Positions 16,483-60,158 are shown, numbered from the stretch's first letter. The stretch: DNA of 64,000 nt from an uncultured Christensenella sp. (GCA_964453915.1 CAYVPW010000001.1:6143-70142), one strand, 5' to 3'. Numbers and translations: made by a program. Notes: generated by a model not told the origin, from the letters alone.

Positions 16483-16557
16483 TGGTACTCCCTGCGGGAA
16501 TCGAACCCACAACTAGCCCTTAGGAGGGGCTTGTTATATCCATTTAACTAAGGAAGC
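16483..16557 (-). tRNA. tRNA-Arg (anticodon CCU), CCA encoded
   Basis: Hand-folded 75-nt cloverleaf. Acceptor GCUUCCU/AGGGAGU (two G-U pairs). D stem GUUA/UAAC. Anticodon stem AGCCC/GGGCU with loop CUCCUAA. T arm GUGGG-UUCGAUU-CCCGC. Discriminator A, then CCA. Confidence 0.85.
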
Positions 16558-16769
16558 GTGAAATGCTTAATTATTTAATTGATAAGCGTGTTTGCCTGTT
16601 AATTTTACAACATAAACGACAAACTGTCAAATTTATCCGCAATATAAAAACAAATTTTGTATACTTTTTAGCAATGCCGTCAATAATCATATTACTGCAA
16701 AAATCACAAAAAAAGGCAAAATCACGTAAAATGATATTAAGAACGGTAGAATCGGAACAAAAATACAAA

Positions 16770-17138
16770 ATGATAAAACGCGGAGAATTATATTATGCCG
16801 ACCTAAGCCCCGTAGTAGGGAGCGAACAAGGCGGCATACGCCCTATTTTAGTAGTTCAAAACGACACGGGAAATAAGTATAGCCCGACTATAATAGCGGC
16901 GGCAATTACCAGCCAACTTAATAAGGCAAAGTTGCCAACTCACATAGAACTGCCCGCAAAAGAGGTTGGGCTTGCTAAAAATTCCGTGATTTTACTAGAA
17001 CAAATACGCACGCTCGATAAAAAACGGTTAAAAGAACGCATAGGCGAACTGCCGCCCTTAAAAATGAAAAAGGTTGACGCCGCACTTATGATAAGTTTAG
17101 GATTTGAAACCTATTTTAACAACAGTCAACCCGTATAA
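16770..17138 (+). CDS. mazF: MazF/EndoA-type endoribonuclease toxin (PemK family)
   Basis: 122 aa from ATG 16770: [40 protein letters not shown]...LPTHIE...[16 protein letters not shown]. This is nearly colinear with B. subtilis EndoA as I remember it. The upstream in-frame extension in the track is not MazE-like. Confidence 0.88.
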
Positions 17139-45310: not shown

Positions 45311-46843
45311 TCAATCTTTTGCACCGTACTTTATTTTCATAAGTTCAACAAAAATCTCCGCCGTGGCATAAGCATCCGACAACGCTCTGTGATGGTGAAA
45401 GGTAATGTTAAAATAATCCGCCAAGGTATGTAAATCGTTTCTTCTTAAAGAAGGTATACACGCCCTGCTCATCTCAACGGTATCTAAAACCCTGTTTTTC
45501 ACCTCGTAGTCTTCAGCTCCGGCAAAACGCTTTATAAATTTAACGTCAAAATCGGCGTTATGGGCAACCAAAACCGAATTTTCTATAAACTTCATAAAAT
45601 CTGGTATTACCGCGGAAATTTTAGGTGCATCCTTAACCATTTCTTCCGTTATTCCCGTAAGTTTTACTATCTCTTGCGTTATGGGGTAATCGGGCTTAAT
45701 CAAGGTGGTAAACTGTTCCGTTAACTTTCCGCCGCTAACTTTAACCGCACCTATTTCCGTAATGCCGTTGCTCATAAGTTCTAACCCGGTCGTTTCTAAA
45801 TCAAAAACAACGTAGTCCGTTTTTGTAAGTTCTTCCGGCAAAACGTCCTCCCCGTCGAAAACGCTTTTTATCTTTACGGTAGAAGTAGCCGAAGGGAAAA
45901 TTAAAGAATAATTTTGCGGCGCAGTTTTTTTGAACTTATCTTTTTTAACGAAATCTTTCGGAAAAGTACATCTGTTTATTTTATCAAACGTGACGGATTT
46001 TCTTCCGTTATACTCTCCTACCCTTCCGTGAACAATAATCTCATCGTCCACTTTAAGTTCTTTAATCTTTGCATATGTGTTTTTTCTTGTAAAATACACG
46101 CCGCTGGTTCTTCCCGTCGTATCGTCTAAGTGGAGAATAAAAAAAGGCTTTCCGTTTTTAGTTTCTCTCTCCGCAATGTCCGTAATTTTTCCGCAAACCG
46201 TAATATCTCCGCTTGTTGCGTCTTCTATATAAACGGCTGTATCCTCCATCAAAGGGTCGTCTATAGGCACTACGTCTTTTACTTTTATCGTTCTGTGTTC
46301 TATCTTTTGAAGTTGACTTGAATAAACTTCTTCCGATAAAAGCGAAATACTTTCTTCCGGCTCTTTAATCTCCGTTCCACCCGCAAAATCCGAACAAAAC
46401 TTTTTAGATAAATAAGCGTTAAGTTTAGTTATCGCTCCGGATTTTGATAAATAATCGGCATTGTCCTCGGTAAGTCTTATCACGTACTTTACCAAGTCGC
46501 CCATCACGGTGCTTCTCACATCCGTGTTTTTCAAAAAAATAGAAACCGAAGGATAGTTTTCCGATAAATATTTTACTATTTCGTTGTTTATCAACTCGTC
46601 ATTAGAAACTATTTTAGAAAAGTAAACATTGACCTTTTCAAAAACTCTCGGCGTTTCTTCCCTAAGTAATCGCCACGCCTTTTTTTGCACTTCTTCGCTT
46701 ACTACGTTTTCGCAAATAAAAACGTACTTTATTCTCTTTTCTTTTTTTACGACTTCTATGCTCGAAATTCTGGCGTTTTTAACACTTTCGCCTATCTCGC
46801 GAATTTCTTGCAATATCTCATCTGCGGTTTTTAACGCAAACAT
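45311..46843 (-). CDS. PolC-like N-terminal/OB-fold/3'-5' exonuclease protein lacking PHP and polymerase domains
   Basis: DEDDh exonuclease motifs YVVFDLETTGLE, VAHNADFDVKFI and HHRALSDAYATAEIF. The upstream OB segment ITVCGKITDIAERETKNGKPFFILHLDD resembles the PolC OB domain. The ORF ends cleanly before the rimP regulatory region. Confidence 0.8.
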   Translation of the reverse strand: MFALKTADEILQEIREIGESVKNARISSIEVVKKEKRIKYVFICENVVSEEVQKKAWRLLREETPRVFEKVNVYFSKIVSNDELINNEIVKYLSENYPSVSIFLKNTDVRSTVMGDLVKYVIRLTEDNADYLSKSGAITKLNAYLSKKFCSDFAGGTEIKEPEESISLLSEEVYSSQLQKIEHRTIKVKDVVPIDDPLMEDTAVYIEDATSGDITVCGKITDIAERETKNGKPFFILHLDDTTGRTSGVYFTRKNTYAKIKELKVDDEIIVHGRVGEYNGRKSVTFDKINRCTFPKDFVKKDKFKKTAPQNYSLIFPSATSTVKIKSVFDGEDVLPEELTKTDYVVFDLETTGLELMSNGITEIGAVKVSGGKLTEQFTTLIKPDYPITQEIVKLTGITEEMVKDAPKISAVIPDFMKFIENSVLVAHNADFDVKFIKRFAGAEDYEVKNRVLDTVEMSRACIPSLRRNDLHTLADYFNITFHHHRALSDAYATAEIFVELMKIKYGAKD

Positions 46844-47994: not shown

Positions 47995-48026
47995 ACAAAA
48001 AAGGCGGCAAACTCACCGCCTTTTAT
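47995..48026. terminator. bidirectional terminator closing the phage-like operon
   Basis: AAAAAA-GGCGG-caaactca-CCGCC-TTTTATTT, 30 nt downstream of the 297-aa gene stop. Confidence 0.7.
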
Positions 48027-48055: not shown

Positions 48056-48949
48056 TTACTCCGCTTTAAGTTTATACCTGTACAATAAATCTTGATAATA
48101 GTCGTCTAAATAAACAATCAATTTAGTTTCTTGCTTAATATCCGAATAAGCCGTTGAAGGTTGCAGCGAATCGTAATATCCTGCAACGCAATTTAATACG
48201 TCTTGATAATATCCCATTTCTATCAATTCGTCTTTAGAAAGTTCACTCGCCTTTATTTGTATATATTTAAGTTCTAAATTAGCGTTTATTTGCATTAAAC
48301 TGTTTGCATATCTTATCTCTTTTTCTTGCAAACCGTTATTATACTTAAACCTTTCTTTTCTGTTTTCGCTTATTTCGTCTTTAAGTTCCTGCACCTTTGC
48401 GTTTAATTTTTTTTCAAAAAGCGTTTCAAACCTGCTTTCCGCTTCGTTTAGTGCTTTGCCATAAGTTTTTATCAATGCTTTTAACCTAGCTTCTTCTTTA
48501 CCTTTTTCCGCTTTTAAATCTTTTATTTCTCGTTCCGTTTCCTTATCTAAACCAAGCGTTTTATCGGCAAACAGCCCCGAATCTGTTATTCCGTTTTTAC
48601 GATATGCCGTGCGATATTTTTTTAATGCTTCCGAATGTGCCGAACGGATTTTTTCTTCTCTTTCCGTAAAAACGGAATTGTTTTCTATAATTTTCAATTC
48701 CAACTCGGCTATCTTATCCGTTAAATTGTTTTTATATTCAAACAGAGTTTTTTCTTTTTCCACGCCCAAAAGCGTTTCTGCTTTTGCGGTTATTTCTTCT
48801 TCCGTAGGGTCTTCGTTTTCCATTCTTTCAAGCGCTAGTTCTTCTAATTGCACACCCTCGTAATCCATTCTTTTTATTCTGTAATAATGAAATATTTCAG
48901 ATAAAACTACGTACATTCCTTCTTTCGTAGTGGGTTTTTCAAACTGCAT
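48056..48949 (-). CDS. hypothetical coiled-coil protein (297 aa), last gene of the phage-like operon
   Basis: ATG 48949 with SD TAGGAG. The central region is long, E/K-rich and heptad-like. I recognise no motif. Confidence 0.55.
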   Translation of the reverse strand: MQFEKPTTKEGMYVVLSEIFHYYRIKRMDYEGVQLEELALERMENEDPTEEEITAKAETLLGVEKEKTLFEYKNNLTDKIAELELKIIENNSVFTEREEKIRSAHSEALKKYRTAYRKNGITDSGLFADKTLGLDKETEREIKDLKAEKGKEEARLKALIKTYGKALNEAESRFETLFEKKLNAKVQELKDEISENRKERFKYNNGLQEKEIRYANSLMQINANLELKYIQIKASELSKDELIEMGYYQDVLNCVAGYYDSLQPSTAYSDIKQETKLIVYLDDYYQDLLYRYKLKAE

Positions 48950-48959
48950 AATTCATCTC

Positions 48960-50195
48960 CTATTTTCTATAAAAAAACGACAATTCGCTTATGCAAAAAT
49001 CTTTCTCTTCACTGAAAAGCTCTACAATAAAACCGTCGGAAAACACACGGGTGCTTAAAATATTGTTTCCGCTATTTAGTGTAAAACTTCTGCTTTCGTA
49101 TTTGCCTTTTACTTTCAAAAGCGCCTTACCCGACGATTTTATTTTGATTTTATAAAGAGTTTTTGCACCGTCCTCTCCAAAATCGAACGCATGACTCTGC
49201 CATTTCTTTGCGCAAGATTTTTCTTTTACAAGGCTGCCGTATGCGTTTAAATTGTAATTAAACACATATCCGCCGTCGCAAAACAACAGACTTTCGGCAT
49301 CAACGAAAAAATCGTTTTTTGCGATCCCGTCGTAAACGTAAAATTTTCTTTTTCCGTTTTGATCGTTTACGGATAAAACGTAAAGATTATCCGCTTCCGC
49401 CGCCTCCCCGATTACCGTATAATTTTTTAAATTAAAGTCGCAATCAACCTTAAAAACAGAACCGCCTTTATATCCGCAAAATCCTTGCAACTTATTTATA
49501 AAGTAAATCGTATTGCCTATTTTTTTAACCGTTTGTCCATCGCAAGCAATCGGAACGGTTTCTAAGTTTTTTATTTTAAATTCCGCAAGAGAATCGCTAT
49601 AACTTAGTTCCGAAATACCACGCTTTCTAAAAATCACAAGTGAATCTTCCGTTTTAACAAACCTTTCAACGGCACCGTATTTAGCGTCCAAATACAAAAA
49701 AGAAAAGTCTTTTGCTTTAAGCGCACCACTCTCTTCTTTGGGCAATAAAAAAATTTTTCTTCCTTTTCCTATAAACAGGTAATCACCAAAAATCTCGCAA
49801 GTAGTTCCGCAAGGAACGGCAAAGTCAAAGGTTGCATCGGTAATTATTTTTCCCAAATTACAACATATCACCACAAAACCTTGCTTACCTTTATACTCTA
49901 TAGGCAAAAGCATGGGAGGCTCTTTTAACCCTGCACACAGTTTTTTTACTCCTCCGCCAAATATTTCGTATAGTTCGCCTTCTTTTACATAAACGATAAA
50001 CCTGCCGTTTACCGTATACGTTTTTATAACGTAAAATCTTTTATCTATACTTTTATCAAGCGCTACGGCGGGTGCGGCTATGATTTTATCTTCTAAAACC
50101 AGCACGCCTTCTTTTTCTTTGGTAAAGTATTTTAAAGAGTTTGGGCAATACTTTCCGTCCTTAAATTTAACCAACTCGATTTCGCTTATATTCAT
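48960..50195 (-). CDS. hypothetical beta-rich protein (411 aa) in the phage-like operon
   Basis: ATG 50195 overlaps the upstream stop (TAATG) and follows AAGGAG; the track's GTG at 50276 is rejected. It shows repeated short hydrophobic-strand/Gly-turn patterns suggestive of a propeller or sandwich fold. Confidence 0.55.
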   Translation of the reverse strand: MNISEIELVKFKDGKYCPNSLKYFTKEKEGVLVLEDKIIAAPAVALDKSIDKRFYVIKTYTVNGRFIVYVKEGELYEIFGGGVKKLCAGLKEPPMLLPIEYKGKQGFVVICCNLGKIITDATFDFAVPCGTTCEIFGDYLFIGKGRKIFLLPKEESGALKAKDFSFLYLDAKYGAVERFVKTEDSLVIFRKRGISELSYSDSLAEFKIKNLETVPIACDGQTVKKIGNTIYFINKLQGFCGYKGGSVFKVDCDFNLKNYTVIGEAAEADNLYVLSVNDQNGKRKFYVYDGIAKNDFFVDAESLLFCDGGYVFNYNLNAYGSLVKEKSCAKKWQSHAFDFGEDGAKTLYKIKIKSSGKALLKVKGKYESRSFTLNSGNNILSTRVFSDGFIVELFSEEKDFCISELSFFYRK

Positions 50196-50755
50196 TAGAT
50201 AAATCTCCTTGCCCTTAAAACTTTGTTTTTGGGAGGTATCAACTGTGAAAGTGCGTCCGTAAATCTTTTTCTCCACATAACACTTTCGTCAAAAGCCCTT
50301 TCGGTTATACAAAATTCGGCTGCGACGCCGTAAGCGATTACTCTGGCTGATATAACGTTTTCTTTATAACCTATCTCGTCCGTCAAACCGTAAACGGGCG
50401 GCAAATAATTATACTCTACGGAATATTCCGAATAAACGGTTTCGATATATTCGGCGTTCTGCGTATAGCTTATATCTTTTCCGTCGTCATCATAAGCACC
50501 CGTAATCTCTAAAACCGTTTCGGGAAAATCTTTATAATAAATTCTTCCGTTATCCGTTTTGAAAGTTCTTTTTTTAGTCATAGGTAAATAACTTGCCGAC
50601 AGTTCGTTTACTACTAAGTTTGCACACCTTGTAAATATATCCACCGTTGATAAAACGTTATCATCCGTATCGGCGTTTTCGTTATCTAAATATTTAATCA
50701 CGTTTTCTCTTCCTAAAAACGTAGCAGAGTACCTTACCACCTCTTTGATATTCAT
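50195..50755 (-). CDS. hypothetical protein (186 aa); head-completion or adaptor role suggested only by its position after the capsid gene
   Basis: ATG 50755 with SD AAGGAG. It lies immediately downstream of the capsid gene and hairpin. Confidence 0.5.
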   Translation of the reverse strand: MNIKEVVRYSATFLGRENVIKYLDNENADTDDNVLSTVDIFTRCANLVVNELSASYLPMTKKRTFKTDNGRIYYKDFPETVLEITGAYDDDGKDISYTQNAEYIETVYSEYSVEYNYLPPVYGLTDEIGYKENVISARVIAYGVAAEFCITERAFDESVMWRKRFTDALSQLIPPKNKVLRARRFI

Positions 50756-50784
50756 AGTTTTCTCCTTTTTTTCGCCGTAAAACT

Positions 50785-50808
50785 TTCGGGCGGAAAAATC
50801 CGCCCGAA
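50785..50808 (-). terminator. intra-operon hairpin after the capsid gene (possible partial terminator)
   Basis: Perfect 9-bp stem TTCGGGCGG-aaaaat-CCGCCCGAA between the capsid stop (50827) and the next ATG (50755). Confidence 0.45.
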
Positions 50809-50826
50809 CATTTCTTTTGTTTTTTA

Positions 50827-51993
50827 TTAAGCTTCCGTAATGCCGGAAATCATTCCTTGTCCGTTTGGTCTAGAACAAATAAGGTCAGCATATTTTACCA
50901 AAGTCGCCGTATAAACGGGCTTGCCCGCAACTTGTTTTAGCACCTTGCCGTCTTCGCCCTCTAACCACTGCCAATCGCAAAGTTGATGAAGTGCAAAGTC
51001 TTCGGTGTTCAATAAATACATAGTGCCGTCCGGACAAAATCTATCCGCAACAATGGGAATACCGTTATAACTCATCGCCTTATAACCGCCCACAAGTTCA
51101 ACAGTGTCTATCACGCGCTTGTTTTGAGCAAACAACTTTTGAAGTTCTCTTCTAACACCCCAAGAGCAAACTATAAAGTTTACGGTTCCGCCGCTTTGCT
51201 CTTCTATTGTATCAATCGCTTGTTGAATATCCAGTTCGGAGATTTCACCCGCACTTTTCTTAACGTAAGGTTTTAACCAACCGTGCGTAGTTTTAGAAAG
51301 CCCGTAAATAGAACCTTCCTCGCTAAAAATTGCTTTTAATCCGGTCAATTCGTTGTTATAAGAGCCTTGAACGGTCAAAACGGTATCAACCAAACCGCTT
51401 TCGTCCGCAACGCTTCCCGCAAGTTTAATCGTCTTTGCATTTCTATCTACAAAAACAACTCTCTTACCCGCCGCAACTATTTCGCCGTCGGAATCTCTAA
51501 AATCAACTACCATACCTTCTATAACGTTTTTAACGCTATCCAAAGTAATAACGCCGCTTGCCGCAGCGGAAACCGTGGCTATTTCTCCGGAACCGTCGCC
51601 GAACAACATTCTGCCGAAGTTAAAAGAGGACGCCTTTAACAACCCTTCCATTTCGGAATTTAGTAGACTCACAAACGCTCCGGAATTGTTTTCGGAAGCC
51701 CTTACCGCTTTATCCGAAATCTCTATAGTTCCGTAAAGGTTTTTAAGACTTACCACAAATTGTTCGTAATTGTTTCCCGTAGCGGAAGGGAGGTCTCCGT
51801 CTTCCGTGCCGGCACCTATACCGCCGTTCATTCCGTATATGGCAAGTTTTCTTACCTCCTTACCCCAAACGTCGTCGGTAGTCTGCTTTATCATAGATAA
51901 AAGCGGGTTGGTTTTTAAGTTAAGTTGCTCTGCAACCACGTCTAAATAAAAAGATTTTAACGCTTTATCCGCGTTAGTTAATGTCACTGCCAT
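50827..51993 (-). CDS. phage major capsid protein (HK97-fold type, scaffold-dependent)
   Basis: 388 aa directly after a scaffold-like gene. The N-terminal region (ADKALKSFYLDVVAEQLNLKTNPLL...) resembles capsid families of Firmicute phages as I recall them. SD AAGGAG. Not searched. Confidence 0.65.
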   Translation of the reverse strand: MAVTLTNADKALKSFYLDVVAEQLNLKTNPLLSMIKQTTDDVWGKEVRKLAIYGMNGGIGAGTEDGDLPSATGNNYEQFVVSLKNLYGTIEISDKAVRASENNSGAFVSLLNSEMEGLLKASSFNFGRMLFGDGSGEIATVSAAASGVITLDSVKNVIEGMVVDFRDSDGEIVAAGKRVVFVDRNAKTIKLAGSVADESGLVDTVLTVQGSYNNELTGLKAIFSEEGSIYGLSKTTHGWLKPYVKKSAGEISELDIQQAIDTIEEQSGGTVNFIVCSWGVRRELQKLFAQNKRVIDTVELVGGYKAMSYNGIPIVADRFCPDGTMYLLNTEDFALHQLCDWQWLEGEDGKVLKQVAGKPVYTATLVKYADLICSRPNGQGMISGITEA

Positions 51994-52011
51994 TATAATT
52001 CTCCTTAAAAA

Positions 52012-52452
52012 TTATTGTAAAATTTCTTTTGCCAAAGCCCCCGCTTCCGCAAAGGTTTTCGGCTTGGCGACAGGCGTTTTCACGCTTACGCCGCCGTCGC
52101 TCATTAAAACCGCCGTTTGTTTTTTTCCTAACACGCCTTTAAGATATTCTTTAAGAATACCGTTTATTTCTTCGGTATTGTTCTTTTCTGCAACGTCTTG
52201 TTTCGTGTTTTCGGCAGTTCCCGCCGCGTAGCCGTCGGGGGAACTTTCTTTTCCCGATAGCGCCGCCCCCTCTAACTCTTTTAGCCTTTGACAGCGTTTG
52301 GTAAACTCTGACTGTAAAGAGTTATACGCATTAAGAAGGGCATTTACGTCCTTAAACTTACCTAAAAAGGCATTTTCGCTTTTCCCGCCATTATCTATTT
52401 CCGCACTTGCGGCGTCGGGCGCCACTGTCTCTTTAACGATAGTTTCTTCCAT
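52012..52452 (-). CDS. phage scaffolding protein
   Basis: 146 aa, helical, between portal and capsid. The motif GKFKDVNALLNAYNSLQSEFTKRCQRLKELE is typical of scaffold proteins. Confidence 0.6.
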   Translation of the reverse strand: MEETIVKETVAPDAASAEIDNGGKSENAFLGKFKDVNALLNAYNSLQSEFTKRCQRLKELEGAALSGKESSPDGYAAGTAENTKQDVAEKNNTEEINGILKEYLKGVLGKKQTAVLMSDGGVSVKTPVAKPKTFAEAGALAKEILQ

Positions 52453-52476
52453 ATTCTTAATTCTCCTTGTAATTCT

Positions 52477-54333
52477 TTATTTTTCCGTAAGCATATTTTT
52501 ATGCGCCTTTACGTGAACAAAAAACCTTTCTTTTTGCTCATTATTTAGTTCGTCGTATTCGCTTAAAAAATATCTCACGTGTTCGTCTATATGTATTTGA
52601 TGATTATCTATCAAGTCAATATCCAAGCCGCTCTTTCTTATCTTTTCGTTTTCGCACTGAGCCTTTTCTTGATGAAGTCTTGACAATCCTTTTTGATAAT
52701 CTAAGTCTTTATACCCTAAAAGAGTAAGCACCTTTTCTTTTGTAGAAGTATCTATTTTCCCGTCTTCGGAATTTAACAAGCCGCTTTCGTAAAGCTTAAA
52801 TACCATCTCTTTTTTTTGAGAATCCGTGTAAAGCAACTCGTTTTCGCCGTCCATATAAACGTCGTCCGAAAAAGCCGTTGACTTATCGGCATAATAAATC
52901 CTAGTTTTTTCAAATTCGTCTACACACTTAATCGCCCTTATTCCCGACAAAAATTGTTGATACAACCTTAAAACGTGTTTTGCAACCGCTATAAAAGAAC
53001 GCCTTATACTCTCCGCAGACATAATAAGTCTTTGATTGTCTTGGTCAACCAAAATTTCCAAAGCCGTTCCGCTAGATACGTTTGCGTTATTAGAACTGCT
53101 GCTAACGTCCGAAACTCCGCTTATAATGGTAAACTCGTTTATAAGCTTACTCTCTTCATCTGAAAAATCAGAAGGTATAGAATTTATCTCCATCATTTCG
53201 GGTGCTTTAGATCCTTGCCTATACACCAAAATTTTACCGGGGGAAAGCCCTTCTTCGGATAAATCGTCTACGTCTACCGATCCGTCCTCAACGGTCATAA
53301 CCCCGTTAGAAAGCCTGTTCAAAAACTCGTGTTTTCTGTTTTTTACCGCATTAAACGCTCGCTGCACGGGTATAAGCCTTTCTATCACGCTAGTTCCGAA
53401 AAAACTTCCGCATTGAGAATACGCTTCTTGTTTTACAAAAGGAATACCCCTTTTCCCGTTTTCGCCGCAAATATACGGAAGTTCTCCGTAATACAACAAC
53501 CTATCTCCGGCAACCACTATAAGCCTTCCTTGCGGATAATCGGAATCCGGCGCAACGTATTTTTCTATAACCGTCACTGCGTTTTTAAGTTTTTTCTTTC
53601 CGTTCTTTTTACCTTTCATTGCGAAATCTATAACGGATAAATCGTTAACGTCTACATCCTTTCCGACAAGTTCCACACCGTATTTTTCTTTAACGACCGA
53701 AACGGGCACTGCTTTTGCGTGTATAACGGAAGAACAGCTTTCTATATTTTCGGCGTAAAGATTATCCGGAAATATCTCAAACGGCGAAACCGCCGCAATC
53801 TTTACTTCACCTTCATAAACGTCTTTTCCGTCGTAAACACCAACCTTGTTCCCTCCGTCGTTATCCCATATAATCTTATAAAATCCCGTGCCGCAAGATT
53901 CGCTCCAAGAATTCACTTGATTTATAACTCTCTCTATATCGTTTCTTTTAAGTGCTTCCGCAATCAACTTTTCCGCAAGGTTAGCGCTTTTAACGTCTTC
54001 GTCGTCATCGGTTTTAGGGCGAACGCTTAAATTAGGCAGCACTCTAGAAAGTTTTGCCAAACGGGTTTCAACAATGGGCGCAATGTGATTAAAAACGCCG
54101 CGGTTTTGCCAGCAAAACCCCTTGTTTTCTAAAACCAACTCTCCCCTGCCGTTTATTCCGCAGTATTGATTACCCGTTAAAAAGTTTATATTTAATTCCC
54201 ACTGCCTTTCTAAAAACAGTCTTTCCCTCTGTCTTTCTTCAAAATCGGAAACCGTTTCATAAACAAGTTCTTCAATAAATCTTTCTCTGTCTTTGTCCTT
54301 TTGTTTTAACGCAGAATATTTATTTCTATTCAC
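52477..54333 (-). CDS. phage portal protein
   Basis: 618 aa located after the terminase. GTG start at 54333 lies 6 nt after GAGGAG. The call rests on size, position and a portal-like N-terminal region (WELNINFLTGNQY...). Confidence 0.68.
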   Translation of the reverse strand: MNRNKYSALKQKDKDRERFIEELVYETVSDFEERQRERLFLERQWELNINFLTGNQYCGINGRGELVLENKGFCWQNRGVFNHIAPIVETRLAKLSRVLPNLSVRPKTDDDEDVKSANLAEKLIAEALKRNDIERVINQVNSWSESCGTGFYKIIWDNDGGNKVGVYDGKDVYEGEVKIAAVSPFEIFPDNLYAENIESCSSVIHAKAVPVSVVKEKYGVELVGKDVDVNDLSVIDFAMKGKKNGKKKLKNAVTVIEKYVAPDSDYPQGRLIVVAGDRLLYYGELPYICGENGKRGIPFVKQEAYSQCGSFFGTSVIERLIPVQRAFNAVKNRKHEFLNRLSNGVMTVEDGSVDVDDLSEEGLSPGKILVYRQGSKAPEMMEINSIPSDFSDEESKLINEFTIISGVSDVSSSSNNANVSSGTALEILVDQDNQRLIMSAESIRRSFIAVAKHVLRLYQQFLSGIRAIKCVDEFEKTRIYYADKSTAFSDDVYMDGENELLYTDSQKKEMVFKLYESGLLNSEDGKIDTSTKEKVLTLLGYKDLDYQKGLSRLHQEKAQCENEKIRKSGLDIDLIDNHQIHIDEHVRYFLSEYDELNNEQKERFFVHVKAHKNMLTEK

Positions 54334-54336
54334 CTT

Positions 54337-54636
54337 TTACTCCTCGCCTTTTTCCGCCAAAAGTTTGATAAGTCTTGCTTTTTCTTTTTGCAATTCTTCG
54401 TCGCTCATTTCGGATAAATCTTTATCGTTTTCCGTAAGCAACATTTTTAAAGCCGTAATATCCGGCGGAACGTTTTTTTTAGTCACTTTCTTTTTAGAAA
54501 GTTTTACACCGTCTTCATCGGAAACGTACTCCGTGACAGTTTCCGTACAATCGTATCCAAGCGCTTTTTTTAGTAAAGCGTCCTTTAACTTTTTTTGGCT
54601 TAAGACGGATTTAATATCGTTAGATTTTTCTTTCAT
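54337..54636 (-). CDS. small charged phage-module protein (99 aa); possibly terminase small-subunit-like, function uncertain
   Basis: Overlaps the TerL 3' end by 17 nt. SD AAGGAAG. The segment KKKVTKKNVPPDITALKMLL resembles the C-terminal motif of some small terminases (from memory). Confidence 0.45.
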   Translation of the reverse strand: MKEKSNDIKSVLSQKKLKDALLKKALGYDCTETVTEYVSDEDGVKLSKKKVTKKNVPPDITALKMLLTENDKDLSEMSDEELQKEKARLIKLLAEKGEE

Positions 54637-56050
54637 TAAGCATCTTCCTTATAAGCCTTTCTTTGTCTTTTTGGATTTCGGTTTTAATCGGCTTTATAGG
54701 AGATAATGCGGGCTTCTTCATTAAATAATACCTTAACTCGTCCAAAGAATGGTCGTCGTATTTTTTAGGCGTATCACCCGAACCCCACCAGTAGCTTTTG
54801 AACTCTCTTATCAGGTTAACGCAATTTTTAAATACGTACAGTTTAGGCTTTTTAGGGTCTTTATTTAAGTATTGTTTTACCCTTTGTATACCGCTAAACA
54901 TATCTTTATTAACTCTAGGATTAGCGTTTACGCCTTGTTCGTAGAATAATTCCGTCACGCTTTTATTTAGAGCAAGCGTTCTTTGGTTCGCTGCAGAATC
55001 GATTATGGCGTTAACCCTTCCTTCCCCGTCGGTTTTCCAGTTTAACCTTTTACAAATCTCTTTTATCGCCTTTGCGTGAAAAACAACGTCCTTTCCCGCA
55101 ACGAAATGCTCCGCCACCGCGTAAACGTTCCCGTCATAATCTACCGCATACCAGTGTGCGGAAAGCGGATTATTTAATCCGGGATCTATAGAAACGGTAT
55201 CTTGCCATTCTAAAGGAACGTCAAACGGCTCTATCACGTGAAAGTTTTCGTCAAATTCCGGATACACAAGCCCCGTATTAGACTTAAATCTGCCGTATCT
55301 TCTACTCTCAATTTGGTCCAAAGGTAAACTTTTAGTCAACTCTTCAAATTCTTGTTTTTTTAAAAAAGGGTTATCCGCCCACTCCATAAATTCATACCAA
55401 ACTTCGGGCGAATCCCCACTATTTAAAAATATCTCGTCGTAAATATAAGTAAGTCCCTTTAAGGGCGTCATCGTTCCGAAAATATCCCCCGACTTATCCA
55501 AAACTCTCATTCTGCATTCGTCGTAAATATCTTTGGGCGGCTCTTCGTCAAACCAAACGAAATCTAAAGAACTTCCCTGAAATTTTTCTCTGCCTTGGTC
55601 GCAAGACTTAAACCCTATCACGCTTATGCCGCCAAACACGTTTTTTATCATAATTTGGTCTATCACACCGTATTTAAGGCTGTCTTTTTTTCCGGAAAGC
55701 ATAGTCACGTCTTGTATCCAGCGTGGGTTTAAGTAGTGCAAAACTTTTGCCTGCGCAACATCTCTTTGTACTTGCGTAGAAAGCGACACAACCCAACCGA
55801 AAACGTTTTTTCTGTTTTCTCTATACGGATGAATTCCCCTTGCCATATAAACGGCTTCAACCGCTCCACATTCGGTTTTTCCGCTTCTGTTTCCGCCGAA
55901 AACCCACCTGTTTCTTTTTTGGCACTTATGAAATTCTAATTGTTTTAAATGAACTTTTTCTCCGACGTTGTAATTTTCTAAATTTCTGAAAGCCGCTCTT
56001 TTTTTCTGTTCGTTCTCTATTTGAATAATCTTTTTATAAATCTCAAACAT
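54620..56050 (-). CDS. phage terminase large subunit
   Basis: Walker A GGNRSGKT, Walker B LDFVWFDEE, and nuclease-domain acidic motifs VSIDPG and DDHSLDELRYY. 476 aa. Confidence 0.85.
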   Translation of the reverse strand: MFEIYKKIIQIENEQKKRAAFRNLENYNVGEKVHLKQLEFHKCQKRNRWVFGGNRSGKTECGAVEAVYMARGIHPYRENRKNVFGWVVSLSTQVQRDVAQAKVLHYLNPRWIQDVTMLSGKKDSLKYGVIDQIMIKNVFGGISVIGFKSCDQGREKFQGSSLDFVWFDEEPPKDIYDECRMRVLDKSGDIFGTMTPLKGLTYIYDEIFLNSGDSPEVWYEFMEWADNPFLKKQEFEELTKSLPLDQIESRRYGRFKSNTGLVYPEFDENFHVIEPFDVPLEWQDTVSIDPGLNNPLSAHWYAVDYDGNVYAVAEHFVAGKDVVFHAKAIKEICKRLNWKTDGEGRVNAIIDSAANQRTLALNKSVTELFYEQGVNANPRVNKDMFSGIQRVKQYLNKDPKKPKLYVFKNCVNLIREFKSYWWGSGDTPKKYDDHSLDELRYYLMKKPALSPIKPIKTEIQKDKERLIRKMLNERKI

Positions 56051-56057
56051 ATTCTAC

Positions 56058-56086
56058 AATTTAACCTTTAATTCGATATAAAACAA
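56058..56086 (-). promoter_or_regulatory. candidate promoter of the phage-like operon, spaced for a leaderless TerL mRNA
   Basis: Minus strand: TTGTTT (56086-56081), 17 nt, TAAATT (56063-56058), then 7 nt to ATG 56050. No SD precedes TerL. Confidence 0.3.
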
Positions 56087-56145: not shown

Positions 56146-56886
56146 ATGAAACGCAAAATGTTTTGTTTAACGGCGTTCGTTCTTTTGATATTTACCGTTT
56201 TTCCGCAAGCATACGTTGCAAATGCTGATACCAACTATTTTAGAGTGATAAATTCCGAAACGCCCTTTTATCGCGATAAAGAAATGCAATCTCTCGCATT
56301 TTATCTCCCCTATACTTACTATGTAAAAGTTTTAAGCGTAGACGGAGATGTTGCTCACGTAGAGTGTTACGGACAAGCAGGCTCTATCGCAATGGACGGA
56401 TACACCCCGTACTCTTTACTTTATAAAGATAACCTGCTAACGGACGCCCCCTATCTATCGCTTACGATTACAACTGTAGAACCTACTAAACTCTACGAAG
56501 ACGCAAACTTAAAAACCCCTACTAGATACTTGTTTCAAGAACGCACGCTCTCTTACTACGGCAGTATAGAAACGCAACTCGGAATTGTATACTACGTAAG
56601 CTATAACGGGCAGTTCGGATACGTGAGCGAAGAAGCCGTGTATCCTTTTACGGTTGCAAACCACCCTAACGAACTTACTTTTTTAATACAAAACGAACCG
56701 TCTTCTTCATCAGAATCTAAAGATACGCTAAAAGATACGGGCGATTCTTCAGATAATTATCTTACCATTCGCATTGTGATAATATCTTGTTTGGTTCTTG
56801 CGGGATTAATAGCCCTATTTACCGTAAAGCGCCCTAAAAAGGCTGCCCAAACCACAGATTACTACGACGAAAACGAATACGAATAA
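56146..56886 (+). CDS. secreted, C-terminally membrane-anchored protein with two SH3-like repeats
   Basis: Signal peptide (MKRKMFCLTAFVLLIFTVFPQAYVANA), two similar roughly 70-aa modules, a Ser-rich linker, a TM helix (IRIVIISCLVLAGLIALFTV) and an acidic tail. Confidence 0.6.
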   Translation: MKRKMFCLTAFVLLIFTVFPQAYVANADTNYFRVINSETPFYRDKEMQSLAFYLPYTYYVKVLSVDGDVAHVECYGQAGSIAMDGYTPYSLLYKDNLLTDAPYLSLTITTVEPTKLYEDANLKTPTRYLFQERTLSYYGSIETQLGIVYYVSYNGQFGYVSEEAVYPFTVANHPNELTFLIQNEPSSSSESKDTLKDTGDSSDNYLTIRIVIISCLVLAGLIALFTVKRPKKAAQTTDYYDENEYE

Positions 56887-56894
56887 CCTAAAAT

Positions 56895-57413
56895 TTACGC
56901 AGTTTTGCGTTTTTCCGCATTTGTTTCTACGGAAGTTTGTTTGCGCTTGTTTTTTATCGTTTTGCCTTCAATTTCGTAAACTCTTTTTAACAACTCCTTA
57001 AAAAAGTCCATTTTAAGGCAATACTTTTCAAACCACTCGTCGTTTACGCCTGATTTTTCCAAATTACACGCAAATTTTTCGGCAAGTTTTACTTGCCTTC
57101 TAAAATAAGCCCTTCCCGTATAATCAAAATCTTGGAAAAAATCTTTGGTTTTATCTCTAAAATATTTATAACTGAAATAAACCAACTCTTCGTCCGAAAA
57201 TTTTTTCAAGACCTTATCAACGATTATCTTTAAAACGATAAGCGTATCCTTTTGTTCGGTATAAGATAAAACCTTTTCGCACTGACAAACACACGGCGAC
57301 AGGTCGTTAATAGAAGCCAATGCCTTTTTCTCTACTAACTCGTCAATCTGGTCCATAACGTCTTCCAAGTGTTTGTAAGCATATAAAACCGCCTTAGCAT
57401 AGTATTTATTCAT
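56895..57413 (-). CDS. hypothetical cytoplasmic protein (172 aa)
   Basis: ATG 57413 lies 7 nt after GGAG; the track's GTG at 57455 is rejected. Helical, with a basic C-terminal tail. I recognise no motif. Confidence 0.55.
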   Translation of the reverse strand: MNKYYAKAVLYAYKHLEDVMDQIDELVEKKALASINDLSPCVCQCEKVLSYTEQKDTLIVLKIIVDKVLKKFSDEELVYFSYKYFRDKTKDFFQDFDYTGRAYFRRQVKLAEKFACNLEKSGVNDEWFEKYCLKMDFFKELLKRVYEIEGKTIKNKRKQTSVETNAEKRKTA

Positions 57414-57695: not shown

Positions 57696-60158
57696 ATGAA
57701 AGCAAATGTAAACAATAAACTAAAGAAAATATTTTTGGCGGTTTTAGCACTTGTTATGCTGTCTTCTATCCTTGCTTTTTTCTCTGCGAACAAAAAAGCA
57801 AGCGCATCAAGAGGCATAACCGTTTCGGAATTTTTACCCACCAACGAAATCGAATACTACGAATTTAACGAAAACGTTCCTAAAAAAAGTTTTTTTTGGG
57901 ATAACAACGCTGCGATAATTTTAGAGAATTCTCAAAATCATAATTATAGCGTTTTGTTTTATATTCAAAACAAAGGGTACTCTCTCTACGATAAACTGGG
58001 TGACAAAACGCCCCACCAAATAAAAAAATTATCAAACGACACCATTGCCATTGCGCTAACCAACGTTTTATATTCCATAAATATAAACGATCTATCCGCT
58101 TTTCCGCAATCGCTACTCAGCAATTCTACACCAGTTTCCGGCTCTTATTTCGACTTAAACGCAAGCCATTTGGCGGCGGCTTCCGGAAACGACGTTTACT
58201 TATATAATCTCAGTGGGCTAAACGTTACGGACGGTCAAAGAATTACGGAAATAAGCGTAGAAGAACTTACCCCCATCTGCGTAAACGAAAACGACGACCT
58301 TTTCTACTTAGCAAACGGCACTCGTGCACTGACAAGATTTAACTTGAATACAAAATTAACCACGGAGTTATTATCTTCTTCCAGCGAAAATTTAAAGTTC
58401 GTGGCAAATAACGATTATTTGTTTTTCACAAACGGAAGAGATTTTTATAAAATAGATTTAAAAACGTTAAATCAAACCAAACTCACTCCGCCGAATTCAG
58501 ATTTCGATTTGGGTAAAATAGATACTGTTAGCGATATTTGTTTTAGGGAAAACGGATTAGTAATAACCGATTCTACCCTGCCCGCCATTCAAGAATTTAC
58601 CGTAGACGACAGTAATTTAGAATTTACGGGATTTGCAATAGCAAGCAATAAAACCGCTTATAACAGAATAAGCGAAAGCGCAAAAGAAATAGACGTTTCT
58701 TATAATTCTCTTGCAGTTTTAGACAGCGTTAAACTTACCGTAATAAAAAACACGGAAGAAAACTTAAAAAGCAAAAACAATTTTGCAAATTATTTTATTA
58801 ACGAAGGCGTTTTAAGCGGGCTTAATCCCTCTATGCTTGCGCTTGGTAACGGAAACGCTATGCTTGGCGGAACAAACAAGGTGTTGATATTAGACTATAA
58901 TTCCGGCAAAAAACTGTTTGAGCACACGTTTGAAGGCGGAAACAACATAGTAAGCATAACCTATCAAAGCAATGCATACTACGCAACTAAAATAAAAGAC
59001 GGCACAGGAAACTCTCTTGCCGTGTATAAAATTTATTTGCAAAACGGAGAATACGTTTCGGAAGAGTTATTTTCTACGGACGAAATTTATAACGCAACCG
59101 CAAAAACCACGGTAGACGTAAACGGTAATTTTTACATCACCAGTAGCGTAAACAACTGCGTTTATAAATATTCAAAAACAGAAAACGGATATCAAGCAAC
59201 ACAGCTAAACGGACTTACCGAAAGCGGAATATTAAAACTTGCCACGGACCTAAGCGGAACGCTTTTTATGTTAAAAAGCAATTGCGTGCAATATTATCAT
59301 AACCAAACCGTTTATACTGTTCAAACAAACTTTAACGGCAAAACCGCAAAGTCTTTTGCAATGGATTACGATAACAAATCGGTATATTTCATATTTAACG
59401 GTTTAGAAAACGTAGCAAAAACGGACAATTTACCTAATATATCCTTAAAAAACGCCGTTATTCCGCAAGAATTTAAAATAACCGATACAAACGCAAGCGT
59501 ATCCGAACTAAAAATATATTCTCCTAAACAAAACGCAAATGTTTACGAAATCACCAAAAGCGAAAGCACTTTCACTTTTAACGGACTATTCAAAAACGTA
59601 ACAACGGATTTTATAAAAATTTGTTCTTTAATTCTAACGGAAAACGATGAAGAAAACTCTATAGAAAGAACTTGCAACTTATCCGTTTTAACCGGGAAGG
59701 ACGATAAAAACGCTTCCGTTATGGTAATAATAAACGATAACGACCTAGAAGAGATTAACTCCGTCACCCCGAAAGAAAAAACCTTGTACGTTACAACGGG
59801 CGTAAACATGTATTACATTCCCATAATAACGGAAGACAGTAGATTTTGCCTAACAGATTCTAACGGTCAAACTATAAGATTAGATAAAAAGTCTGAAATT
59901 CTTGTATTAAATAAAGTGCAGTCCTTAGAAAGCGTATTCTACTTTGTTAAAGTAAACGTTAACGGAACGGAAGTATTCGGCTACGTTCCCGAAAACTACA
60001 CCGTAGAAGTTCTTTTTGAAGACATTATAGGTACACCTAACCAAACGCTTATAGAAGGAAACAACCCCCACGCTTTAAGAAACGCATTGATTGTTATCGC
60101 TTTGGCGTGCTCGGTTTTCGGAACTTCTTTCTATTTTATCTTTAAGAAAAAAGATTGA
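57696..60158 (+). CDS. large extracytoplasmic protein (820 aa) with an N-terminal signal/anchor, repeat-rich beta ectodomain, SH3-like module and C-terminal TM anchor
   Basis: N-terminal KLKKIFLAVLALVMLSSILAFFSA and C-terminal ALIVIALACSVFGTSFYFIF-KKKD. Many short strand-turn repeats (NDVYLYNLSG, DYLFFTNGRDFYKIDL, GNFYITSS, ...). No SD before ATG 57696. Confidence 0.65.
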   Translation: MKANVNNKLKKIFLAVLALVMLSSILAFFSANKKASASRGITVSEFLPTNEIEYYEFNENVPKKSFFWDNNAAIILENSQNHNYSVLFYIQNKGYSLYDKLGDKTPHQIKKLSNDTIAIALTNVLYSININDLSAFPQSLLSNSTPVSGSYFDLNASHLAAASGNDVYLYNLSGLNVTDGQRITEISVEELTPICVNENDDLFYLANGTRALTRFNLNTKLTTELLSSSSENLKFVANNDYLFFTNGRDFYKIDLKTLNQTKLTPPNSDFDLGKIDTVSDICFRENGLVITDSTLPAIQEFTVDDSNLEFTGFAIASNKTAYNRISESAKEIDVSYNSLAVLDSVKLTVIKNTEENLKSKNNFANYFINEGVLSGLNPSMLALGNGNAMLGGTNKVLILDYNSGKKLFEHTFEGGNNIVSITYQSNAYYATKIKDGTGNSLAVYKIYLQNGEYVSEELFSTDEIYNATAKTTVDVNGNFYITSSVNNCVYKYSKTENGYQATQLNGLTESGILKLATDLSGTLFMLKSNCVQYYHNQTVYTVQTNFNGKTAKSFAMDYDNKSVYFIFNGLENVAKTDNLPNISLKNAVIPQEFKITDTNASVSELKIYSPKQNANVYEITKSESTFTFNGLFKNVTTDFIKICSLILTENDEENSIERTCNLSVLTGKDDKNASVMVIINDNDLEEINSVTPKEKTLYVTTGVNMYYIPIITEDSRFCLTDSNGQTIRLDKKSEILVLNKVQSLESVFYFVKVNVNGTEVFGYVPENYTVEVLFEDIIGTPNQTLIEGNNPHALRNALIVIALACSVFGTSFYFIFKKKD

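Follow-up and report, generated by a model that had tools for sequence, protein, structure and literature searches.

The main finding of this report is that a stretch of DNA from an uncultured Christensenella sp. (64,000 nt, GCA_964453915.1 CAYVPW010000001.1:6143-70142; hereafter the window, in whose numbering all positions are given) carries at 48056-56050 a cluster of eight genes that constitutes a new candidate gene transfer agent (GTA)-like system, conserved across an order of gut bacteria. We read this cluster, with a probability of about 0.6, as a chromosomally fixed, vertically inherited derivative of a P22/SU10-like podovirus, a GTA-like (viriform) system making small DNA-filled particles. 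That the set is a long-domesticated and selectively maintained particle-building module is the firmer part of this reading, as judged from comparison with its relatives. An earlier interpretation made from the window's letters alone (the sequence-only reading) had described a phage head and packaging operon devoid of tail genes, and had offered two explanations, a domesticated GTA-like particle or a capsid-forming satellite borrowing tails from a helper phage. The first stands, while the second and the claimed lack of tail genes do not. A literature search found, in the library it covered, no paper describing this cluster.

The packaging and head genes are those of a tailed phage. The identities that had been proposed for the large terminase (TerL), portal and capsid protein were confirmed by Pfam, PHROGs and NCBIfam. 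TerL matches Pfam Terminase_6N (6.5e-16) and Terminase_6C (7.5e-4) as well as phrog_2 (3.6e-28), and the portal matches Pfam P22_portal (8.9e-17) and SU10_portal (1.8e-13) as well as phrog_156 (3.3e-36). The capsid protein matches NCBIfam NF033394 capsid_maj_Podo (2.5e-84), the sole capsid model matched at E<=0.1, together with phrog_14242 (5.1e-64) and Pfam SU10_MCP (3.2e-7); searches of PDB sequences with the capsid profile and with the portal protein gave no match. The small protein g99 matches phrog_309 (terminase small subunit, 2.2e-7) at profile positions 196-248 of 319, and so do 31 of the 32 members of its family (~196-248 only; best 4.6e-9), while 16 members match phrog_23444; the family shares the motif KKALGY..E..EEY...KKKVTKKNVPPD..A.K.L. 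Because only this internal segment of the small terminase (TerS) profile is matched, the N-terminal part of g99 appears to be missing, and the small size of the protein suggests that it probably lacks the N-terminal DNA-recognition domain of full-length TerS. Finally, g146 has no family match in Pfam, PHROGs or NCBIfam, and its gene lies between the portal and capsid genes, like that of P22 gp8, a position kept in every relative at lengths of 138-257 aa. By this analogy, g146 is a putative scaffold.

The claim that the cluster has no tail genes had to be given up, as predicted structures identify two of its three supposed unknowns as an adaptor (g186) and a nozzle (g411). The AlphaFold2 model of g186 (predicted local distance difference test (pLDDT) 88, predicted template-modelling score (pTM) 0.78) was compared with the PDB using Foldseek, and nearly all of its top ~30 matches are chains from the adaptor or neck of phage tail complexes, chiefly those of podoviruses, including Shigella phage B2 (4e-5), SU10 (6e-5), KHP30, Pa223, N4, crAss001, KP32 tail tubular protein A and T7 gp11. 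On this model, g186 is the tail adaptor. The model of g411 (pTM 0.63) rests on a shallow alignment of 3 sequences because a word-indexed homology search gave only 3 relatives. Its top 16 Foldseek matches in the PDB are all podovirus nozzle chains (Pa223 1.7e-11, P22 9jg6_a 5e-8, SU10 and T7 gp12), and in BFVD most of the named top matches carry the label "P22 Gp10 DNA-stabilising" (best 4.6e-12). In addition, the g411 family profile weakly matches the SU10 tail chain 7z47_G (2.7e-4), and one g411 relative matches phrog_3287, a virion structural protein. We therefore assign g411, on a model of moderate quality, as a podovirus-type tail nozzle. Since adaptor and nozzle follow the coat gene in P22-like order, the cluster appears to encode its own stub tail. 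The last gene, g297, encodes a protein matching Pfam DUF7934 (7.5e-8; 4.8e-23 for its homologue in the relative L064), which is always last in the cluster, a position corresponding to that of the P22 plug/needle gene gp26. The protein has no match in the PDB or among phage records, and our literature search found no paper mentioning DUF7934. A long coiled-coil needle was considered for g297 and is not supported, as a test of heptad periodicity gave just two short segments.

The eight open reading frames (ORFs), all on the minus strand, lie where the sequence-only reading had placed them and are co-oriented as it had stated, and its description of their tight packing is accurate: TerL and g99 genes overlap by 17 nt, and gaps of 3 and 24 nt precede the portal and g146 genes, respectively. 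Strong Shine-Dalgarno sites precede seven of the eight genes, and the GC content of the cluster, overall and at third codon positions, matches that of neighbouring host genes, both also as described. The TAATG overlap it reported exists only if the seventh gene, encoding the nozzle, starts at ATG 50195. This is the most likely start, giving 411 aa: it is preceded by an AAGGAG Shine-Dalgarno site, and independent gene calls chose it too, whereas the alternative GTG start (438 aa) has no such site. The operon does end in an intrinsic terminator, beyond which there is an ispG promoter-like site (47939-47911). A second structure, a GC-rich hairpin, lies just 3' of the capsid stop codon. The 100 nt after this codon fold at -12 kcal/mol or stronger in 57/58 relatives, by a lenient cut-off, and in most relatives (among L004-L083) an extended stem is present there, although its sequence varies. 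This hairpin is probably an attenuator or partial terminator lowering expression of the tail genes. At the other end, the 95-bp divergent promoter region proposed upstream of TerL could be upheld only in part. The gap is real, but the sole conserved sigma-70-like promoter in it points away from TerL, its conserved -10 box belonging to the divergent gene p246. Upstream of TerL, ~10 nt ahead of its Shine-Dalgarno site (~56065-56085, minus strand), a short motif, A(T/C)ATC(G/T), recurs in close relatives and could be part of a non-sigma-70 promoter.

Another important finding is that the cluster is conserved as a unit. Scanning a genome collection with one genome per species confirmed at least 569 matching stretches, and we compared the best 80 of these, each from a different metagenome-assembled genome (MAG) of Christensenellaceae, Borkfalkia or Clostridia; all 80 belong to Christensenellales-type Clostridia. 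The capsid protein itself has thousands of relatives, the top 120 of which are 71-92% identical. Gene order is identical in 80/80 loci. The question raised by the sequence-only reading, whether the cluster sits at the same ispG/pda locus in related genomes, can be answered positively for part of this set: ispG is downstream in 23/80, directly or after one or two extra genes, with 20 continuing to nusA, and pdaB-SSB (SSB, single-stranded DNA-binding protein) is upstream in several of the 80 and also in IMG/VR fragments with just 56% capsid identity. In the window's clade, chromosomal position and flanking host genes are common to species with 63-81% capsid identity. Decay in relatives was likewise looked for, and none is seen in TerL (61/61 open, counting relatives with full context), portal (71/71), capsid (80/80), adaptor (71/71), g99 (58/58) or g297 (31/31, where tblastn detected it), the nozzle being split or short in three. 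In distant "type B" relatives (L064 13186-14363; L041, L059 and L071), two extra genes lie between the nozzle and DUF7934 genes, encoding proteins of ~302 aa (N-terminal coiled-coil-like segment and beta-rich C-terminus, no significant database match) and ~74 aa. The downstream host genes in these relatives differ from those in the window, and the DUF7934 gene is still last. One possibility is that they encode a fibre or needle not present in the clade of the window.

The cluster is also maintained by selection and tracks its hosts. When we compared the window with two close relatives, the ratio of nonsynonymous to synonymous substitution rates (dN/dS), a measure recommended by the sequence-only reading, indicated purifying selection in all seven genes for which it was computed (0.05-0.35): portal 0.05, capsid 0.07-0.08, adaptor 0.09, g99 0.18, g297 0.19, nozzle 0.25-0.33 and scaffold g146 0.35, against 0.04-0.06 for the host genes ispG, polC-like and nusA. 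No value was obtained for TerL because dS was saturated. The nozzle is the fastest-evolving gene of the set, with 57% identity where the capsid has 92% and 37% where the capsid has 85% (L084 and L085). This pattern, which is expected of a surface-contacting part, suggests a variable partner such as the cell surface. Across 21 genomes, mean pairwise identities of TerL (0.73) and capsid (0.70) are close to those of ispG (0.69) and nusA (0.74), and the distance matrix of the cluster tracks that of host genes (Mantel r=0.79, 0/2000 permutations as high). Judged from these distances, the cluster is vertically inherited and co-diverges with host genes.

How does the cluster relate to phages and to GTAs? 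The nearest sequenced phage matches are only 28% (capsid) and 30% (TerL) identical. IMG/VR holds 40 relatives (L087-L126). Most of these fragments are short and keep the gene order of the cluster, some carry host genes upstream, and several include pdaB and SSB. Two distant ones (L122 and L126, 43-56% capsid identity) adjoin genuine tail or replication genes, which indicates a podophage origin. GTAs and other viriforms are defined by caudovirus-derived structural genes in a cellular genome, by vertical transmission in concert with that genome, and by the absence of autonomous replication, integration and lysogeny functions. The cluster has the first (TerL, TerS fragment, portal, capsid, adaptor and nozzle) and shows the second, while for the third the 64-kb window has no integrase, repressor, replication, lysis, lysogeny or long-tail genes that we could find, in agreement with the sequence-only reading. 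According to PMC9662315, from which these criteria come, such particles hold mostly random host DNA, with at best part of their own genes, and GTAs are made by a subpopulation, released by lysis and deliver their DNA to recipient cells.

Comparison with known systems highlights similarities and differences. Gene order resembles that of P22 (3-2-1-8-5-4-10-26), with terminase, portal, scaffold, coat, adaptor (gp4-like), nozzle (gp10-like) and a gene at the gp26 position, and the matches of portal, capsid, adaptor and nozzle are to families or structures of the P22/SU10 type. However, the set is at most 30% identical to any sequenced phage, has none of P22's ejection proteins, tailspike, lysis, replication or lysogeny genes, has a truncated small terminase placed after TerL, and is chromosomally fixed and vertically inherited. 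With RcGTA-type agents, the cluster shares phage-derived structural genes, vertical inheritance, conservation across a bacterial order and purifying selection; the RcGTA small terminase has reduced DNA recognition and, as in recognised GTAs, the cluster may exceed the capacity of its own small head. Unlike RcGTA, which is siphovirus-like with a long tail and has 17 genes in ~15 kb plus unlinked loci in Alphaproteobacteria, the system described here is podovirus-derived, half the size and found in Clostridia, and would be an independent domestication. A comparable element of a Gram-positive bacterium is PBSX of Bacillus subtilis, likewise chromosomally fixed, phage-like and packaging random host DNA. 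At ~28 kb, this defective prophage is myovirus-like: it has a contractile tail, carries lysis genes as well as a repressor, and forms a killing particle.

The closest parallel is FpGTA of Faecalibacterium prausnitzii, a podovirus-like GTA-like element encoded by a near-ubiquitous chromosomal operon, whose particles are ~40 nm, tailless-looking and filled with ~8.5-kb random host DNA (PMC12946183, Nat Commun 2026). Like the cluster in the window, it is a chromosomal operon of a gut Clostridia lineage that has no long tail genes and encodes a TerS-like protein (in FpGTA one lacking an obvious DNA-binding domain), TerL, portal, a protein whose gene separates those of portal and capsid, the capsid itself and a nozzle of podovirus type. 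It differs in size (10 genes in 10.5 kb versus 8 genes in 8 kb), in host order and in the position of the TerS-like gene, which follows TerL in the window. FpGTA is also known to have a second, unlinked operon, which encodes fibres and a receptor-binding protein together with a holin and an endolysin; the DNA analysed here spans 64 kb of the genome. Because the capsid families differ in name, that of FpGTA (RCH50849.1) being annotated "N4-gp56 family" versus NF033394 here, the two look like separate domestications, as judged by these family names only. The same study reported GTA-like packaging of random chromosomal fragments of ~4.1/7.1 kb and ~6.3 kb in virus-like particles from the gut Christensenellaceae genera HGM11616 and QANA01, and assigned no genes to this packaging (PMC12946183). 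These 4.1-7.1 kb fragments are smaller than the 8-kb cluster. Together with the FpGTA precedent, they make a GTA-like function of the cluster plausible.

From these findings, we infer a scaffold role for g146, non-specific packaging, particle production, release and DNA transfer. The capsid protein would assemble around the portal, aided by the small protein encoded between both genes, and TerL would fill the head with DNA by a headful mechanism. As its g99 partner has probably lost its sequence-recognition domain, any host DNA could be packaged. The portal would then be sealed, and a stub tail formed, by the adaptor and nozzle, perhaps with the DUF7934 protein, in the manner of gp4, gp10 and gp26 in P22, with the post-capsid hairpin lowering expression of the tail genes. 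Release and cell attachment would depend on genes elsewhere in the genome.

Several observations weigh against this reading. The nozzle model is of moderate confidence (pLDDT 66), with TM-scores of 0.2-0.39 to podovirus nozzle chains, and among L004, L024 and L044 the nozzle ORF is either broken in two (120+306 aa; 317+115 aa) or shortened (293 aa), which could be decay or assembly error. For the DUF7934 protein and the putative scaffold, no test gave a functional assignment. No recognisable or conserved sigma-70 promoter was found directly upstream of TerL in the 95-bp gap. The upstream gene u186, a candidate regulator described below, is absent from the neighbourhood in 16/55 relatives, and for this reason we did not count it as a core part. 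Finally, no gene for a receptor-binding protein, ejection protein, holin or endolysin was found in the window.

The most serious rival is a domesticated particle used for something other than gene transfer, such as a PBSX-like killing or lysis-linked particle, release of extracellular DNA, or a decoy or defence device competing with infecting phages for DNA or tail parts. Conservation and selection support this possibility just as they support a GTA-like system, neither receptor-binding nor ejection proteins for delivery into a recipient were found, and PBSX is a precedent for packaging DNA without transferring it, the same question having been left open for FpGTA (PMC12946183). However, a complete packaging motor and portal-sealing proteins would be costly for a particle whose cargo was something else than DNA, the rapid divergence of the nozzle suggests contact with a variable partner, and Pfam, PHROGs and NCBIfam detected no toxin or lytic domain in the eight proteins. 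We therefore regard a non-transfer use as a credible minority view, clearly less probable than a GTA-like system.

The other explanations fare much worse. Judged by the criteria that the sequence-only reading had set for itself, the comparative results speak against all three of them, whether satellite, recent remnant or ordinary prophage; given synteny, intactness, selection and co-divergence, together with phages being no more than 28-30% identical, its domesticated GTA-like particle stands. The satellite, resembling capsid-forming phage-inducible chromosomal islands (cf-PICI) that make their own heads and steal the tails of a helper phage, owes its appeal to the compact head and packaging set without long tail, lysis or replication genes, which is generally what the late module of such elements looks like. 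It is largely refuted and highly improbable: no integrase, regulatory or primase-replication module and no sign of mobility was found in the 64 kb, position and host flanks are shared across the species of the window's clade, the cluster co-diverges with host genes and it encodes its own adaptor and nozzle. If the cluster were what is left of an old prophage, inert and not yet decayed, this would explain why it is phage-derived and incomplete, and why the nozzle gene is split or short in three relatives, but this view is refuted by the data on selection and intactness and we find it barely credible. For seven of the eight genes, every copy located in a relative has an open frame. Wherever computed, dN/dS stays well under 1, and its values for portal, capsid and adaptor approach those of ispG and nusA. 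The order of the genes has outlasted a divergence bringing host ispG to ~70% identity, and the post-capsid hairpin has been maintained through sequence turnover. The least probable explanation, which is refuted for this locus, is that the cluster is the head module of a complete prophage whose other genes are outside the window. The two distant IMG/VR relatives beside tail or replication genes are in its favour, but in the window both flanks consist of conserved host operons, over 48 kb in one direction and 8 kb in the opposite one, and in relatives host genes begin immediately after the DUF7934 gene. A functional P22/SU10-like prophage was likewise rejected, as there is only a head and head-completion module, bounded by host genes.

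The genes around the cluster (Table 1) are of interest in their own right. The rest of the window is housekeeping, including feoAB, gyrBA, dnaKJ-hrcA and the infB operon, plus a mazF toxin gene. Upstream of the cluster are two genes for secreted membrane-anchored proteins (p246 and p820), the gene for the conserved 170-aa protein u186, an SSB-like gene and a pdaB-like gene. In 39/55 relatives, a u186 family member is found ~900 bp upstream of TerL and shares its strand. The protein has no significant match in Pfam, NCBIfam or the PDB, and 1/28 members matches DUF722 at 0.0035. Because it has a helix-turn-helix (HTH)-like motif and its gene a perfect sigma-70 consensus promoter (TTGACA-18-TATAAT at 57489-57460), we propose u186, with low confidence, as a candidate regulator of the operon. 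Read-through from u186 toward TerL would be antisense to p246, because this oppositely oriented gene intervenes. p246 is kept between u186 and TerL in most relatives and had no family match, and p820 had no significant match; both genes stay beside the cluster in most relatives, distant ones included. Downstream are ispG, a gene for a 510-aa exonuclease resembling the N-terminal part of PolC, rimP, nusA and infB. The PolC-like protein occupies the position of polC in Firmicutes (ispG-X-rimP-nusA). It is encoded by a stand-alone gene rather than a truncated polC, because its length is conserved in all syntenic relatives (507-519 aa) and its dN/dS is 0.04. Elsewhere in the window, the MazF/PemK-family toxin gene (16563-17138, plus strand) directly adjoins tRNA-Arg(CCU) (16483-16557, minus strand).

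Table 1. Features of the cluster and its surroundings, with positions in the window.
Feature	Position	Strand	Description	Basis
TerL	54620..56050	-	Large terminase, 476 aa, ATPase + RNaseH-like nuclease	Pfam, PHROGs
g99	54337..54636	-	99-aa small-terminase-like fragment	PHROGs
Portal	52477..54333	-	618 aa, P22/SU10 type	Pfam, PHROGs
g146	52012..52452	-	Putative scaffolding protein	Position only
Major capsid protein	50827..51993	-	388 aa, podovirus SU10-like HK97-fold family	NCBIfam, PHROGs, Pfam
Post-capsid hairpin	50785..50808	-	GC-rich hairpin just 3' of capsid-gene stop codon	Stem TTCGGGCGGA/TCCGCCCGAA, then AGTTTTA
g186	50195..50755	-	Head-to-tail adaptor, T7 gp11 / SU10 adaptor fold	Predicted structure
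g411	48960..50195	-	Tail nozzle, P22 gp10 / T7 gp12-like beta-propeller protein	Predicted structure
g297	48056..48949	-	DUF7934 protein, charged, probably helical	Pfam
Terminator	47999..48024	-	Intrinsic terminator ending operon	AAAAGGCGGTGAGTTTGCCGCCTTTTTT, 11-bp stem
p246	56146..56886	+	Secreted, two SH3-like repeats, C-terminal membrane anchor, divergent from TerL	
u186	56895..57413	-	Conserved ~170-aa protein, HTH-like motif YKYF...SRxYFRKQxK..KF	Motif, position
p820	57696-60158	+	Secreted, SH3-like repeats, C-terminal membrane anchor	
PolC-like exonuclease	45311-46843	-	PolC-like N-terminal domain + oligonucleotide/oligosaccharide-binding (OB) fold + DEDD exonuclease, 510 aa, nothing else	

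The Christensenellales are heritable, health-associated gut bacteria that are mostly uncultured. It is about as probable as not that the cluster represents an order-wide, independent domestication of a P22/SU10-like podovirus, present in up to several hundred Christensenellales species, that it is the most compact GTA cluster yet (8 genes, 8 kb) and that it is the basis of the random 4-7 kb DNA packaging reported for gut Christensenellaceae. If this is true, the cluster would be an independently evolved GTA lineage and, after FpGTA, the second podovirus-type case in Clostridia, its eight genes coming close to the smallest set of parts for a sealed podovirus head filled with DNA. The cluster also supplies a defined genetic target for the packaging signals that sequencing of faecal virus-like particles has revealed, and the 40 IMG/VR relatives illustrate that virus-prediction pipelines mislabel such chromosomal fragments as viral. 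If transducing particles are made, the Christensenellales would have a built-in route of gene exchange common to the whole order.

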